From Escherichia phage ime09: 64,000 bases of DNA. This document shows, in pieces, positions 1 to 45,884 of this stretch. The notes beneath the pieces are model-generated. The model did not search any database, was not told where the DNA came from, and worked only from the letters and a program-made list of their open reading frames with translations. Positions within the stretch are counted from its first letter, which is position 1, and each line of letters begins with the position of its first letter. The position numbers and the translations under genes were made by a program. Location: sequence record NC_019503.1; one strand, given 5' to 3'.

Positions 1-146
1 GATGGCTTAACTGCTTGATATCCCATTCTAAACTCCCTAATTAATCGTTTCTTTGTATCTTCAGAACAACCACTCCAATCAACTCTATCGACTGAAATGC
101 CATCGTCCCCATCGTCTAAATCATACCAGCGAGTTTTTAAAATCAT
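1..146 (-). CDS. hypothetical protein, partial (C-terminal part lies outside the window)
   Basis: Minus-strand frame opens at ATG 144-146 (MILKTRWYDLDDGDDG...) and runs off the window start with no stop; ATGA overlap with stop of the gene above. Confidence 0.35.
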   Translation of the reverse strand, partial: MILKTRWYDLDDGDDGISVDRVDWSGCSEDTKKRLIREFRMGYQAVKP

Positions 147-517
147 TTGATTTTCCTACAATCATTCACGAATTCTTTCATTGATTCATTTTCAATATAA
201 GACATGTAGTTATTATATTCTTTTAATTGTATTTTGTAATCCTTTTTTCTTTGCCAATTTATTTTAAAATTATCATAATGAAAATATAAAATGATACTAA
301 AGAATGAAAATAATGAAATTGCTATAGTATAATGAAGTTCACTCCAAACTTCTATTATATCTACTATACCGCTGACGTTACTGCGGATGTTTAAAATAAT
401 ACAGTCAATCGTTAATCCAATAAGACTACCAGCAAGAGCTGCAGCCAACGCCACAGCAAAAATTAAAAATGACTCAGAAAAAGAATATTTAACTTTATTT
501 AGTTTTGGCTTTTGCAT
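143..517 (-). CDS. small membrane protein (two predicted TM helices), paralog of next gene
   Basis: 124 aa ORF; two hydrophobic stretches then a basic C-terminal tail resembling that of the 499-912 product. Confidence 0.55.
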   Translation of the reverse strand: MQKPKLNKVKYSFSESFLIFAVALAAALAGSLIGLTIDCIILNIRSNVSGIVDIIEVWSELHYTIAISLFSFFSIILYFHYDNFKINWQRKKDYKIQLKEYNNYMSYIENESMKEFVNDCRKIK

Positions 518-912
518 CGTGATTCCTTAACAAATTTCATAATTTCATTAAATTCATACATATTTAGTTTAAGCTGGTGTTCCTTTTTAATCTTTTTACA
601 CTGAGCTTTCCATTCACGTACACGTTTACGATAATGCCTTCCTTGATACCAATATCCTACCCAATTTACAGGTACCAATAAAAATGGAACTACTAATGGA
701 AGAATTAATACTAACAAAAATATTACGCCAGATTCAATATCAGTCATAAAGTCTATAACCATTCCAACAATCAATAGAATTACAAATGATATAGCTGTCA
801 CAGGACCTATTAATACATCAGTAGGAATTAGCTGACGCTTTAGTTCATACTTCACAGGTTTACTTGGAAGGTATAGTGATGGCTTTGACATATTCTCTAC
901 ATTCCTTAACAA
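499..912 (-). CDS. small membrane protein (two predicted TM helices), paralog of previous gene; start may be Met8 at 891
   Basis: 137 aa ORF; hydrophobic core plus basic C-terminus (..MKFVKESRCK) similar to ..MKEFVNDCRK of neighbour; AGGA-like RBS before Met8. Confidence 0.55.
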   Translation of the reverse strand: MLRNVENMSKPSLYLPSKPVKYELKRQLIPTDVLIGPVTAISFVILLIVGMVIDFMTDIESGVIFLLVLILPLVVPFLLVPVNWVGYWYQGRHYRKRVREWKAQCKKIKKEHQLKLNMYEFNEIMKFVKESRCKSQN

Positions 913-1465
913 ATTTTTCTAATAATAAATCGCTTTCAAAATTAGGATTTTCTACGAATTTATCAAAAAGATCATCAACAATAGTCAAGATATTCTTTTT
1001 ACTAAGAATACGTTTATTTTCATGTTTTGTTTCAGAATCAACTATAAGAGTAAAGAAATATTTCTTTCCCTGAAATTTTACCGTAGTATCAATATAAAAT
1101 AAATTTGACTTTTGTAAATTACGTTTAAACCATGCGTCACTTAAACTATAAACGCCAAGATAATCATAATCGTCATTTAAATAACAAACTGTCCATTCAG
1201 GAGAAATGAAATCTGTAAATTCAACATCAAAATCACATGTCAATGAATGAATTGATTCAATACTTTTAATGAGTATTCCAGGACGTATTAAAGACTTTTT
1301 ACCTTTATAAAATCCAGAAAGACTTTCATCAGTTTCATATGAAGAGCTCCAATAGTAATTACGTCCTTCTGCCATGTGTTTAAGAGCATTTAGTAATTGG
1401 TCTGGAACATCAACTTGTCTTTGGAACTCTTCAAACATTGAATTGAAATCACTTTGCATTTTCAT
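860..1465 (-). CDS. hypothetical protein
   Basis: 201 aa ORF, same strand and tight spacing with neighbours; AGGA upstream of ATG. Confidence 0.5.
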   Translation of the reverse strand: MKMQSDFNSMFEEFQRQVDVPDQLLNALKHMAEGRNYYWSSSYETDESLSGFYKGKKSLIRPGILIKSIESIHSLTCDFDVEFTDFISPEWTVCYLNDDYDYLGVYSLSDAWFKRNLQKSNLFYIDTTVKFQGKKYFFTLIVDSETKHENKRILSKKNILTIVDDLFDKFVENPNFESDLLLEKFVKECREYVKAITIPSK

Positions 1466-1506
1466 TCCTATTTACTCCAAGTAATAGGGGCCGAAGCCCC
1501 TTATCA

Positions 1507-2100
1507 TTATTTCAGAGAATTAATATATTCCTGAACATCGGCAGAGGTAGTTTCAACCCCAGAAATATTACCATTAAAGGTTTCAACTCGAGCAAGGGTA
1601 TCTTCAATATCAACCTTAGTCAGTGCTGCAATTTCAACTACATCATCTGCAGTACTAATTCCAAGGGCATTTGCCGCACGAGTTTCACGGATATATTCCA
1701 ATTTAACTGCAAGTTCTTGACGAGCATCATCTAACTCAACTACTTTCTTGGCGATTTCAATTCGCATTTCAGCATAACCGTCAGCTTTAGTAGTCAATTG
1801 CTCAGCTGTTCGACGATATAGTAAACCGAGTTTAGCATGCATTGTTACATCTTGACCTTCGGAAAGAAGTTTACGAATTTCGCGTTCTTTTGATTCGGCC
1901 TGTCGATTCTTTTCGATAACAAGTTCACGAATACGTTTTTCTTCATTAATAGATTTAATAGAAGCAGTTTTTAGATCTTTAATTTTATCAAGTAGTTTTG
2001 CTGCTGCAACGGTATACTGTTCTTCGACAGATAGATTTTTAGCCATAGCAGAACCAAGTTTAGTGCGAATAAACTCAACAATTTTCTTCAGTGTGTTCAT
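1507..2100 (-). CDS. coiled-coil protein, faint PspA/IM30-like pattern (unverified)
   Basis: 197 aa ORF, highly charged heptad-like alpha-helical sequence; RBS AGGAAAT before ATG; family assignment is by eye only. Confidence 0.5.
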
Positions 2101-41922: not shown

Positions 41923-42124
41923 TTTTCACCTTTTTATTAATATGCCTTTTTCTATAGACAACTTTTTCTCGAGTTTCAAATTTATTCTTAGCAGTCATAG
42001 CTCGAGCCCATAATACAGCCACTTCCTTTGCCTGTAAGTTCAATTCACGAGCAATTTCAATGAATGACTTTCCAGACTCATGAAGAGTAAACACCACAAC
42101 CTCAGTTCTCATAATCAATCTCAT
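41909..42124 (-). CDS. hypothetical small basic protein (24.3-like position)
   Basis: 71 aa ORF, basic C-terminus. Confidence 0.4.
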   Translation of the reverse strand: MRLIMRTEVVVFTLHESGKSFIEIARELNLQAKEVAVLWARAMTAKNKFETREKVVYRKRHINKKVKNGTV

Positions 42125-42193
42125 GTTATCGAGTTGGTGCCATTATATACATCATTTTCTGAGTGTGTTTTGTGTGCTTTCAAAATGAAGAAA

Positions 42194-42207
42194 GGGGCCG
42201 AAGCCCC
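42194..42207 (-). terminator. UUCG-tetraloop hairpin 3' of hoc (RNA stability/processing element)
   Basis: Minus strand GGGGCUUCGGCCCC; identical hairpins at 1487-1500 and 62723-62736. Confidence 0.4.
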
Positions 42208-42213
42208 TTATGA

Positions 42214-43632
42214 TTATGGATAGGTATAGATGATACCAGTTTCTAAAGCAGTTTTATGAATGATGTATCCATTACGTGATTCTTGAACATCAACTTCTGG
42301 ATAGTCTTTCATCATCTTCTGAAGAGTGTAACGATGCAGGTAGTATTTACTATCTGGATCTTCAGTTTTCCAATCTTTACCTTCTTCGGTCATTTTTTGG
42401 ATTTCATCCATAACCCACCAACCGCACCAGATATAAGCCGAAGTACGATGTGGAAGAGGATGAACATAAGGCAATTCACCTTCTGGTTCTGGAGCAACTT
42501 TATCAGTTACCTGAACTTGACCTTCTGCTGTGATAGTTTTGCTATCATAATCAGTAGCAGTAACAGTTGCAGTAACTTCAATAGTTTGACTTCCAATAGA
42601 TGATGTATCAACCGTGTATACATTAGTTGACCCTTCTACTGGAGAAGAATCTTTCTTCCATGAATATTCGATTTGTGCTTCTTCTGGAGCATCCGTAACA
42701 TTAGCAGTAAATGTAGCCGAAGCATCTTGCTGAACGTTAATAGAAGGAGGAGTCAATGTAACCTGTGGATTCATTGTTTTCTTATTAACAGTCAATGATA
42801 CTTCATTAGAAGTAACTTCCTTTTCATTGTAATTTTCTGCAGTTACTTGAGCTACACACTTAACTGTTTTAGCTCCAACTGTGGTAGGAGTATAGTTAAA
42901 TGTAGTAGTAGTTTCTCCATCGACCAGAGAACCGTCAACATACCACTGATACGTAGCAGACGCTCCTGGTGGCTGTGAAGCCAAGGCAGCAGTAAATTGA
43001 ACTGGGGTTCCAATTACCCCGGCAGCAGGATTAGCAGGAGTTACTGCCAAGGTAGTCGTCTGCGTCTTCTTATTAACTGTTAATGATACTTCATTAGAAG
43101 TAACGCTTAGTGTATCATAATCTGCCGCAGTTACTTGAGCTACACACTTGATTTTTTTAACTCCGCTTGTGTCAGGAGTGTAATTGAATGTAGCGTCAGT
43201 TGCTTCGTCTACAGGAGAACCGTCAACGTGCCATTGATACGTAGCGTTTGCACCTGATGGCTGTGAAGCTAAGGCAGCGGTAAATTCAATTGGAGTTCCA
43301 ATCACTCCAGCATCAGGGCTACCAGGAGTTACAGCTAAAGTAGTTGTTTGTGTCTTATTTTGAACTGTGATAGTTGTACTAATTTCTGCTGTTTCAGGTT
43401 CAGATTCTGCAACTTGATTGGTTGCAACTACTTTAATAGTCTTTTGACCGGCAGGTCCTTTTAGTACATAACTAAAAGTTGCTGACGTTTCTTCCTGTGG
43501 AGCGTCGTCTACAGTCCAAGCATATGTAATAGGTCCATCTCCAGTTTGACCACTGGGTGTAGCAGTAAACTGCTGAGTCTGATCTATAACTCCAGTAGGT
43601 GTTTTAGGAGTTATATCAACTGTAAAAGCCAT
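42214..43632 (-). CDS. hoc: Hoc outer capsid decoration protein, 472 aa with one more Ig-like domain than T4 Hoc
   Basis: N-terminus ..FTVDITPKTPTGVID.. and C-terminal capsid-binding region as T4 Hoc; two consecutive ~97-aa Ig-like modules both starting TQTTTLAVTP. Confidence 0.9.
   Translation of the reverse strand: MAFTVDITPKTPTGVIDQTQQFTATPSGQTGDGPITYAWTVDDAPQEETSATFSYVLKGPAGQKTIKVVATNQVAESEPETAEISTTITVQNKTQTTTLAVTPGSPDAGVIGTPIEFTAALASQPSGANATYQWHVDGSPVDEATDATFNYTPDTSGVKKIKCVAQVTAADYDTLSVTSNEVSLTVNKKTQTTTLAVTPANPAAGVIGTPVQFTAALASQPPGASATYQWYVDGSLVDGETTTTFNYTPTTVGAKTVKCVAQVTAENYNEKEVTSNEVSLTVNKKTMNPQVTLTPPSINVQQDASATFTANVTDAPEEAQIEYSWKKDSSPVEGSTNVYTVDTSSIGSQTIEVTATVTATDYDSKTITAEGQVQVTDKVAPEPEGELPYVHPLPHRTSAYIWCGWWVMDEIQKMTEEGKDWKTEDPDSKYYLHRYTLQKMMKDYPEVDVQESRNGYIIHKTALETGIIYTYP
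42778..43359 (-). repeat. in-frame tandem duplication (2 x 291 bp) inside hoc, one Ig-like domain per copy
   Basis: Copies at about 42778-43068 and 43069-43359 align at DNA level with scattered substitutions. Confidence 0.8.
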
Positions 43633-43641
43633 AAGTTATCC

Positions 43642-44322
43642 TTATTTTAATGTTACGAAAGAAGAATTGCGTGTTTCACGAATTAGAACTGATCCGTCAC
43701 GGTTAATGTAGTAAATTAAGCTAAATAAAGTTTGATGTGCCGACGCGTGTTCAAAACTAGTTGGGTGAGATTTCCAATCCGGAGTTTCAGCAATCCACTG
43801 GTAAATCCACCAAGGAACAGTGCAGAATCCTGGATTTTTTCCAATCAGCTGAAGATTCGGACTAAAGTTTTCCGGAAGAGTAAATACAGACGGCTTTTCA
43901 GATTCAATAATCTCAGCTACAGCCTGTTCGAATTTTTCTTCAACAAAAGGAGTATCTTCAATCAAAACATCGGTATTTTCGGGAATTTTATCCATTTCGA
44001 CTACTTCAATTTTAATGTCAGATTTAACCGGAGAATCAATCAGAAGTGCTGCTTCTGGATTGACTTCTTCATCGTCATATTTTAATCCCTCTGCGGCATC
44101 AGCAGCATTGATTAAGTCTTTAATAGATAACCCATCAGTCTCTGGCATAGGTTCACTAGCGAGCTTCTGGAGGGCTTCTTCAATATCATTAACGATATTA
44201 TCAAAAGATTTATTCTTTTTGACCTTTATACCAAACTGTTCAGCATATTCAGCTAATTTAGCCTTAGCTTCTTTATTATCATCAAGAGCCTTCAGCTCTG
44301 CAATATAATCTTTATCTATCAT
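43642..44322 (-). CDS. inh: Inh, inhibitor of prohead protease
   Basis: 226 aa, position between hoc and uvsW as in T4. Confidence 0.8.
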   Translation of the reverse strand: MIDKDYIAELKALDDNKEAKAKLAEYAEQFGIKVKKNKSFDNIVNDIEEALQKLASEPMPETDGLSIKDLINAADAAEGLKYDDEEVNPEAALLIDSPVKSDIKIEVVEMDKIPENTDVLIEDTPFVEEKFEQAVAEIIESEKPSVFTLPENFSPNLQLIGKNPGFCTVPWWIYQWIAETPDWKSHPTSFEHASAHQTLFSLIYYINRDGSVLIRETRNSSFVTLK

Positions 44323-44335
44323 AATATTTCCTCAG

Positions 44336-44343
44336 TATAAATA
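44336..44343 (+). promoter_or_regulatory. late promoter box TATAAATA (uvsW)
   Basis: Exact TATAAATA about 30 nt upstream of ATG. Confidence 0.55.
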
Positions 44344-44372
44344 TAGATATATTTATTACATGGTATTTAGAC

Positions 44373-45884
44373 ATGACTGACATTAAAGTACATTTTTATG
44401 ATTTTAGTCACGTGAGAATTGATTGTGAAGAAAGTACATTTCATGAACTCCGTGATTTCTTTAGCTTCGAAGCTGATGGGTATCGTTTTAATCCGAAATA
44501 CAAGTATGGTCACTGGGATGGACGAATCCGTCTATTAGATTATAATCGCCTTCTTCCGTTTGGTTTAGTCGGGCAAATTAAAAAGTTCTGCGATAACTTT
44601 GGCTATAAAGCTTGGATTGACCCGCAAATTAACGAAAAAGAAGAATTATCAAGAAAAGATTTTGATGAATGGCTTTCTAAGTTAGAAATCTATTCAGGAA
44701 ATAAAAGAATTGAACCACACTGGTATCAAAAAGATGCAGTGTTCGAAGGATTAGTTAATCGTCGTAGAATTCTTAATCTTCCAACATCCGCAGGTAAATC
44801 TTTAATTCAAGCTTTGCTTGCACGTTATTATTTGGAAAATTATGAAGGTAAAATTCTTATCATTGTTCCAACAACTGCTTTAACAACTCAGATGGCTGAT
44901 GACTTTGTTGATTATCGTTTATTCAGTCATGCAATGATAAAGAAAATCGGCGGCGGAGCATCAAAAGATGATAAATATAAAAATGATGCACCGGTAATTG
45001 TTGGTACATGGCAAACTGTAGTAAAACAACCAAAAGAATGGTTCTCACAGTTTGGAATGATGATGAATGATGAATGCCATCTTGCCACAGGAAAAAGTAT
45101 TTCATCTATCATATCAGGTTTAAATAACTGCATGTTTAAATTTGGTTTGTCCGGTTCATTGCGTGATGGCAAAGCTAATATCATGCAGTATGTTGGAATG
45201 TTTGGTGAAATATTTAAGCCAGTAACGACTTCTAAATTAATGGAAGATGGACAAGTAACTGAGTTAAAAATTAATAGTATTTTTCTTCGCTATCCCGATG
45301 AGTTCACTACTAAATTAAAGGGAAAAACTTACCAAGAAGAAATAAAAATTATTACTGGGCTCAGTAAAAGAAATAAATGGATCGCTAAATTAGCTATTAA
45401 GCTTGCACAAAAAGATGAAAACGCTTTTGTCATGTTTAAACACGTATCACACGGTAAAGCTATTTTCGATTTAATTAAAAATGAATACGATAAAGTTTAT
45501 TACGTATCAGGGGAAGTTGATACCGAAACACGCAACGTAATGAAAACCCTAGCTGAAAACGGTAAAGGAATAATTATAGTAGCTAGTTATGGTGTATTTT
45601 CTACTGGTATTTCAGTTAAAAATCTGCATCACGTTGTTTTAGCACACGGTGTTAAATCTAAAATTATTGTATTGCAAACAATAGGTCGCGTATTACGTAA
45701 GCATGGTTCCAAAACAATCGCAACGGTCTGGGACCTCATTGACGATTGTGGCGTTAAACCAAAATCTGCTAATACGAAAAAGAAATATGTTCATTTGAAC
45801 TATCTTTTAAAACACGGCATTGATCGTATTCAGCGCTACGCAGATGAAAAATTTAATTACGTAATGAAAACAGTTAATTTATAA
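44373..45884 (+). CDS. uvsW: UvsW RNA-DNA / DNA helicase
   Basis: 503 aa; Walker A PTSAGKS, DEAH-like MMNDECH motif; TATAAATA late promoter upstream. Confidence 0.9.
   Translation: MTDIKVHFYDFSHVRIDCEESTFHELRDFFSFEADGYRFNPKYKYGHWDGRIRLLDYNRLLPFGLVGQIKKFCDNFGYKAWIDPQINEKEELSRKDFDEWLSKLEIYSGNKRIEPHWYQKDAVFEGLVNRRRILNLPTSAGKSLIQALLARYYLENYEGKILIIVPTTALTTQMADDFVDYRLFSHAMIKKIGGGASKDDKYKNDAPVIVGTWQTVVKQPKEWFSQFGMMMNDECHLATGKSISSIISGLNNCMFKFGLSGSLRDGKANIMQYVGMFGEIFKPVTTSKLMEDGQVTELKINSIFLRYPDEFTTKLKGKTYQEEIKIITGLSKRNKWIAKLAIKLAQKDENAFVMFKHVSHGKAIFDLIKNEYDKVYYVSGEVDTETRNVMKTLAENGKGIIIVASYGVFSTGISVKNLHHVVLAHGVKSKIIVLQTIGRVLRKHGSKTIATVWDLIDDCGVKPKSANTKKKYVHLNYLLKHGIDRIQRYADEKFNYVMKTVNL

Follow-up and report, generated by a model that had tools for sequence, protein, structure and literature searches.

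Hoc serves as the standard model of how phages adhere to mucus, and T4 nanoparticle vaccines use it as a display platform. In T4, one Hoc molecule sits at each gp23 hexamer centre and is dispensable for infectivity (PMC10385173; PMC10580926). Its C-terminal domain binds the hexamer centre, and its Ig-like domains project as a fibre of ~180 Å (PMC10385173). Hoc homologues carry one to ten Ig-like domains (PMC10385173), and both the number and the organisation of the domains vary among T4-like phages (PMC13435897). The Hoc of Serratia phage Muldoon has 10 Ig-like domains (PMC10385173), that of Klebsiella phage PMBT63 has one additional Ig-like domain (PMC13435897), and that of PNJ-9 is without domain 3 (PMC11853027). 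Domain 2 of the PNJ-9 protein is reported to bind MUC2 via S183, L184 and T185 (PMC11853027), and the numbering 183-185 of this S-L-T motif holds also in the Hoc of S143_2 (PMC13390416).

These proteins share a common principle with the Hoc described below, namely a conserved capsid-binding domain combined with a variable string of Ig-like domains. Muldoon, PMBT63 and PNJ-9 nevertheless provide distant homologues whose domain number differs between genera, whereas in Tequatrovirus it is the number of one 288-bp cassette that differs, and it does so between near-identical phages. A further parallel is offered by the BACON repeats of crAssphage, which are likewise in-frame tandem domain repeats of variable copy number in a virion-associated protein, although of another fold and in another phage group (PMC6949934). 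Most work on Hoc assumes the 376-aa form of T4 with its three Ig-like domains; roughly 40% of the sequenced relatives, however, have two to four domain-2 modules. In the portion of the literature accessible to us, domain-number variation is described in general terms, with no description of a domain-2 cassette array or of its copy-number turnover in Tequatrovirus.

The gene considered here lies in a stretch of 64,000 nt from Escherichia phage ime09 (NC_019503.1), which is called the window in the following. The source is a Tequatrovirus (T4-like) and is 98.3% identical over 24 kb to Escherichia phage ECP2301, itself a Tequatrovirus. The hoc open reading frame (ORF) occupies 42214-43632 on the minus strand and comprises 472 codons and a stop. 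Its product matches T4 Hoc (PDB 5vf3_Z) with E=1e-249, and the ORF shares 97.6% DNA identity with the ECP2301 gene for a Hoc-like head decoration protein. The neighbouring ORFs encode an Inh-like protein of 226 aa, 24.3/24.2-like products, an RNA ligase 2-like protein of 334 aa and a UvsW-like helicase of 503 aa. The gene is thus found downstream of inh, upstream of 24.3/24.2/rnlB and next to uvsW, which is the order annotated in T4 and its relatives; the position between inh and 24.3/24.2 is shared with T4 itself.

The hoc start lies 9 nt past the stop of the upstream inh-like ORF (43642-44322, the gap being 43633-43641), and the Shine-Dalgarno sequence AAGGA for hoc sits within the end of inh. 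No T4 late-promoter motif TATAAATA was detected on the minus strand of 42000-44400, so that hoc is probably transcribed from further upstream, presumably together with inh. Immediately 3' of the hoc stop codon, at 42192-42209 on the minus strand, a GC-rich hairpin with a T-run resembles an intrinsic terminator, and a terminator is annotated at the equivalent place after hoc in the record of fPS-90.

The window protein is longer by 96 aa than T4 Hoc, which measures 376 aa in the PDB entry. The HMMER match between the two comes as two stretches, window aa 1-190 and aa 189-472, because both of them cover T4 Hoc residues 93-190, that is, T4 domain 2; both window copies, A and B, align with these residues. 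The sequence-only reading of the locus had proposed a Hoc of 472 aa against 376 aa in T4, with the extra ~96 aa forming a second copy of an Ig-like module, and both proposals are borne out by the ORF list, by 5vf3_Z and by the alignment of both copies to T4 Hoc domain 2. Tandem Repeats Finder returned one array at 42779-43368 (period 288, 2.0 copies, 78% matches, score 721), and a separate repeat search gave the same 288-nt spacing. In codon register, the repeat unit is 288 bp or 96 codons and the repeat proper spans 42778-43353. The period of 291 bp given by the sequence-only reading was therefore incorrect, as was its end point at 43359, whereas its start at 42778 stands. Both units begin with TQTTTLAVTP and end with SNEVSLTVNKK, as had been noticed, and they match with scattered substitutions at 223/288 nt (77.4%) and 72/96 aa (75%), while the best of 10,000 shuffles reached 104/288 matches. 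The copies are hence arranged head-to-tail, with a period that is a multiple of 3 and a similarity above chance, which is the pattern of an in-frame tandem domain duplication, and the unit boundaries coincide with the D1|D2 and D2|D3 boundaries of T4.

The product consists of D1-D2a-D2b-D3 and the capsid-binding C-terminal domain, and accordingly displays four Ig-like domains where T4 has three. All domains are encoded on the minus strand. Ig-like domain 1 (aa 1-93; 43354-43632) aligns with T4 Hoc 1-93 and is predicted as a beta-sandwich with pLDDT ~85-93. It is followed by domain-2 unit 1 or copy A (aa 94-189; 43066-43353), an A-type cassette that differs at 4/288 nt from unit 1 of phage YUEEL01, and by domain-2 unit 2 or copy B (aa 190-285; 42778-43065), a B-type cassette with a C-type head (unit types are defined below). 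Ig-like domain 3 (aa 286-378; 42499-42777) aligns with T4 Hoc 190-282, carries Pfam Ig_3 and I-set matches at 289-373 and has a pLDDT of ~90. The C-terminal domain (aa 379-472; 42217-42498) aligns without gaps to T4 Hoc 283-376, at 95.7% nucleotide identity to T4 and with dN 0.009; by this alignment it corresponds to the capsid-binding domain of T4 Hoc (residues ~281-376), whose role has been described (PMC10385173). Pfam places a PKD match of 40.9 bits (cut-off 23.5) as well as Ig-family matches on the units and domain 3. Together with the structure prediction and Foldseek, this identifies the N-terminal part as a string of Ig-like (PKD/I-set-like) beta-sandwich domains.

A structure prediction of the four-Ig form, which the sequence-only reading had proposed as a check, was carried out with AlphaFold2 on 34 homologues and gave four confident beta-sandwich domains, with pLDDT ~90 over residues 1-378. 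Confidence is low for the C-terminal domain (pLDDT <50 over 381-407 and 444-472), and statements on the capsid-binding fold are for this reason not based on the model. Among PDB entries, Foldseek ranks four-Ig fragments of Sidekick, Dscam and ICAM-5 highest, with a probability of 1.00, at TM-scores that are low (0.15-0.3) because the inter-domain angles differ; Foldseek was consequently used for the per-domain Ig assignment only. Amino-acid differences between copies A and B show no preference for loops (12 lie in strands and 12 in loops, p=0.35), which gives no indication that divergence has been concentrated on a binding surface.

In order to place this allele among its relatives, GenBank phage records were searched by tblastn with the 96-aa unit as query (E<=1e-25), which located the unit at 860 places, distributed over 596 records. 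Of 60 records sampled at an even spread from these 596, 38 had one unit, 18 two, two three and two four units. An independent, evenly spaced sample of whole genes, drawn from 657 matching records, contained 52 full-length matches, 19 of the long and 33 of the short form. Since the copy-number figures rest on samples and place counts, the resulting proportions of roughly 61% one-unit, 35% two-unit, 3% three-unit and 1% four-unit records should be taken as estimates and not as a census. Protein clusters exist for 376, 472 and 568 aa, each with many members, and the 568-aa three-unit form is present in ~16 GenBank records. Escherichia phage slur14 (NC_028448.1; CDS 10..2004 of the fetched stretch) encodes a Hoc of 664 aa with four domain-2 units and six Ig-like domains, the longest Tequatrovirus Hoc among those seen in the analysis, and slur03 and Sfk20 likewise give four unit matches. 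Among IMG/VR viral contigs, the D2|D2 junction was found in 1 contig and the control junction D2|D3 in 4, numbers that are too few for a frequency.

The window allele is a real but ordinary variant, given that the 472-aa form has been deposited many times and annotated as Hoc. The full-length 1419-bp gene is found at 92-97.6% identity in ECP2301, U115, JK08, HP3, pSs-1, phiD1, teqsoen, slur04 and others, all with the same architecture and length. One protein cluster of deposited 472-aa Tequatrovirus Hoc is 98% identical to the window protein, and the deposited proteins differ from it by point differences and by the fine mosaic of the units only; unit 2 of HP3 and ECP2301, for instance, has a B-type head, whereas that of the window has a C-type head. 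T4 Hoc (376 aa; PDB 5vf3, 8t1x and others) differs more obviously in having one domain-2 unit, C-like or mosaic, against two in the window (A, then B with a C-type head). YUEEL01 and UGKSEcP1 (568 aa) as well as slur03, slur14 and Sfk20 (664 aa) contain the cassettes of the window and one or two extra middle units. Among the phages closest to the window over 24 kb (97.7-98.3% identity) are the one-unit phages Ec_MI-02 and ADUt, the two-unit phages ECP2301 and KMB23 and the three-unit phage ESh26. The finding in the window is thus already known at the sequence level, and the picture of cassettes across the population is a modest by-product of its analysis.

Several deposited records deserve a comment of their own. 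LR597660.1 (Escherichia phage T4_ev151) is named as a T4 derivative, yet it encodes a three-unit Hoc of 568 aa instead of the 376 aa of T4, and its domain 1 region has no megablast-level match to the window. The phage may have arisen by recombination in a phage-breeding experiment; the literature found on this record consists of accession citations only. The RefSeq record NC_041919.1 (HP3), T4-like by sequence, reads 'Rosemountvirus' in its taxonomy line. In MG010123.1 (Staphylococcus phage SAJK-IND), a record of 32 kb, a T4-type 1419-bp hoc is present at 93% identity, which suggests mislabelling or contamination.

The two units of the window are separated by a dS of 0.70 with a dN/dS of 0.24, and dN/dS between the units of three other two-unit genes is 0.12-0.28. 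Between the window units and the single unit of T4, dS is 0.64-0.74, the deepest allelic divergence for domain 2, whereas the A unit of the window differs from the A units of HP3 and PYPS2T by a dS of 0.04-0.05. Identities give the same ranking: window A is 96-99% identical at the nucleotide level to the A units of HP3, PYPS2T and YUEEL01, window B is 97% identical to YUEEL01 B, and A and B are 77% identical to each other. Orthologous units are closer than the A-B pair, which is the opposite of what a recent, lineage-specific duplication leaves behind. Near-identical units are absent from the multi-unit alleles examined, where the maximum is 85% aa identity in 38 clusters and 84% nt identity in the fetched genes. 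As the divergence between A and B reaches the allelic depth and near-identical units are missing from these alleles, the repeat is old, with both units under purifying selection, and nothing in these comparisons points to a duplication within this phage's own lineage.

In a neighbour-joining tree of 164 units, one clade gathers the first units of 29 out of 30 two-unit proteins and of all eight three-unit proteins, together with six single units, and most of the single and later units are placed in another. Units were also typed at the DNA level by the 65 sites that distinguish the A and B units of the window, which yielded types A and B, a third, T4-like pattern C, and mosaics. Arrays of the type A-B are present in the window, HP3 and ECP2301, A-C in KMB23, A-C-B in YUEEL01 and UGKSEcP1, and A-mosaic-C-B in slur14. 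The single unit is of type A in PYPS2T, of type B in Ec_MI-02 and C-like in T4, and teqhad combines an A head with a B tail. Among 120 cluster representatives that were typed, A-type units never stand outside the first position. A strict A-C-B order was also considered, and it is weakened by A-b-C and c-C arrays and by many mosaic units among the 120 representatives; it is best regarded as a tendency only.

T4-type phages recombine very actively, and several alleles can be converted into one another by the removal of whole units. When one unit is taken out of the YUEEL01 array, starting from nt 21-31 of unit 2, the window array results with 7 mismatches in 576 nt. Removal of two units yields the whole hoc of PYPS2T with 3 mismatches in 1131 nt, none of them within the array, and removal of one unit at nt 229-239 of unit 1 yields HP3 with 19 mismatches in 1419 nt. 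Similarly, a crossover placed at unit nt 204-229 of the window gene produces the teqhad sequence, apart from 18 mismatches in 1131 nt. PYPS2T, whose array matches without a single mismatch, is the clearest case of contraction among these. The unit-length deletions that relate YUEEL01 to the window array and to PYPS2T argue that copy number changes by unequal homologous recombination. The hoc genes of YUEEL01, PYPS2T and HP3, phages isolated on different hosts (E. coli, Yersinia pseudotuberculosis), have 1-3 mismatches outside the array and yet three, one and two units, respectively. From the sequences, this difference in unit number looks like a very recent copy-number change.

Copy B of the window differs from the YUEEL01 B unit at 8 positions, of which 5 fall in the first 21 nt. 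Its first 31 nt (43035-43065, minus strand) agree exactly with the C-type unit that stands in the middle of three-unit arrays, including that of YUEEL01, and carry the C base at 5/5 distinguishing sites (unit nt 2-20). From nt 31 on, copy B has 3 mismatches in 257 nt to the B unit, whereas over its full length it departs from C at 59 positions. By these sites, copy B is a C/B chimera with a switch between unit nt 21 and 31, a structure more readily explained if a three-unit array lost one unit than if one was gained relative to T4.

We therefore favour, with a probability of roughly 0.85, the reading that the two diverged in-frame cassettes are one common state of a Tequatrovirus hoc array of one to four units, in which unequal recombination changes the copy number. 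Tequatrovirus hoc would hold an old array of diverged domain-2 cassettes belonging to at least three ancient sequence types, and unequal homologous recombination between the units, either within one genome or between co-infecting phages, would alter their number and generate chimeric units. Both the near-invariance of the first 30 nt and the last 40 nt of the unit and the activity of T4-type recombination would favour such exchange. A likely homologous crossover site is the conserved 3' end of the unit, which encodes VTSNEVSLTVNKK and is found at 42776-42816 in unit B and at 43064-43104 in unit A, as members of one family of 41-nt repeats that are 93% identical between the copies. The window array, A followed by B with a C-type head, would most simply descend from a three-unit A-C-B array by a crossover ~21-31 nt into C and B. 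The suggestion of the sequence-only reading that the repeat is a substrate for expansion and contraction is borne out by the relatives that carry one, two, three and four units and by the chimeric units. Comparison of the sequences establishes the architecture, divergence, distribution and chimerism of the units. The direction of each event is unproven, because unequal crossover gives expansions and contractions reciprocally, and because co-infecting phages that exchange whole alleles by ordinary homologous recombination would give like patterns.

The array could alternatively have arisen by a recent tandem duplication of domain 2 in the window phage itself, starting from a T4-like gene for three Ig-like domains, and such a gain relative to T4 was implied by the sequence-only reading. 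The perfect in-frame, head-to-tail repeat is in line with this idea, and a 6-nt microhomology, AAGACA, lies at both the D1|D2 and the D2|D3 boundaries as a possible mediator; that the very first duplication took place through it is speculation. The copies, however, differ at 65/288 nt, their dS is the same as that between the window and T4, the same A and B units occur at 96-99% identity in many other phages, the most similar units within an array stay at or below 85% aa and 84% nt identity, and the two-unit form is present in about one third of the genomes. A recent duplication in this lineage is thus very improbable and effectively already refuted. An assembly artefact in the window sequence has a negligible probability: tandem repeats can in principle be mis-assembled, with nothing specific to suggest it here, whereas the reading frame is intact, the same 1419-bp gene is present in dozens of independently sequenced genomes, and the copies could not have been collapsed or expanded by misplaced reads because they are 22% diverged. 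A more substantial, though still unlikely, scenario is that domain-2 alleles first diverged in separate single-unit lineages and were then joined into arrays, through illegitimate or microhomology-mediated unequal recombination between co-infecting phages. Single-unit alleles of pure type do exist (A in PYPS2T, B in Ec_MI-02, C-like in T4), the divergence between unit types equals the allelic divergence, and the microhomology at the domain boundaries could again be of use. Yet PYPS2T, once the deleted units are set aside, differs from YUEEL01 by only 3 mismatches in 1131 nt and has a B-type tail, as expected of a contraction product and not of a progenitor, while the restriction of A-type units to the first position fits an old ordered array. 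Joining of alleles and ancient divergence in place are not cleanly separable with these data.

A different question is whether unit number matters to the phage. The difference in copy number may be selectively neutral, without effect on adhesion or fitness, and arise simply because T4-type hyper-recombination acts on a repeat in a decoration gene that is dispensable; we regard this as a serious alternative, albeit one to which we give somewhat less than even chances. One-, two- and three-unit alleles coexist among phages that are ~98% identical over 24 kb, Hoc is non-essential (PMC10580926), frameshifts split hoc in several deposited genomes, and the copies do not differ preferentially in loops. 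Against neutrality, all units examined are intact and evolve under purifying selection (dN/dS 0.12-0.28), domain 2 of a related Hoc is reported to bind MUC2 (PMC11853027), and many Hoc homologues retain long Ig strings (PMC10385173). A bolder version of the array reading holds that an ordered cassette array switches fast among ~98% identical phages, that fibre length or the number of glycan-binding modules is possibly selected, and that the three-Ig Hoc of T4 is contracted and not ancestral; we put it forward tentatively and consider it rather doubtful. If it were true, fibre length and the number of glycan-binding modules would constitute a rapidly switching trait.

Returning to the favoured reading of a one- to four-unit array, what the additional domain may do can be judged from the established structure of Hoc. 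The conserved C-terminal domain would seat the 472-aa protein at the gp23 hexamer centre, the extra domain would lengthen the projecting fibre by about one Ig domain, and it would display a second copy of the domain-2 surface that has been implicated in mucin binding. The S-L-T motif reported to bind MUC2 in domain 2 of PNJ-9 is present in copy A as S183-L184-T185 (43078-43086, minus strand) and again in copy B as S279-L280-T281 (42790-42798, minus strand). A greater reach or avidity, or an altered adhesion, is plausible. Variation in unit number bears on the comparison of adhesion among therapeutic T4-like phages, on annotation and on the engineering of fibre length.

Some smaller features of the gene were also recorded. 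A terminator scan marked a small hairpin with a T-rich tail at 43004-43020 and another at 43291-43309 (minus strand), one per unit. The two lie ~288 nt apart at the equivalent unit position, within sequence encoding AGVIGTP, and are conserved between the copies; they are probably merely coding sequence. Copy A contains a run of seven A at 43152-43158 (minus strand; codons VKKIK), whereas copy B is without this run. In FriedrichMiescher ('Hoc part 1 / part 2'), PM107, 101117BS1, NHEP10 and Ec_YwIITB1, hoc is deposited in two pieces or with a length of 1418, 1420 or 1430 bp.
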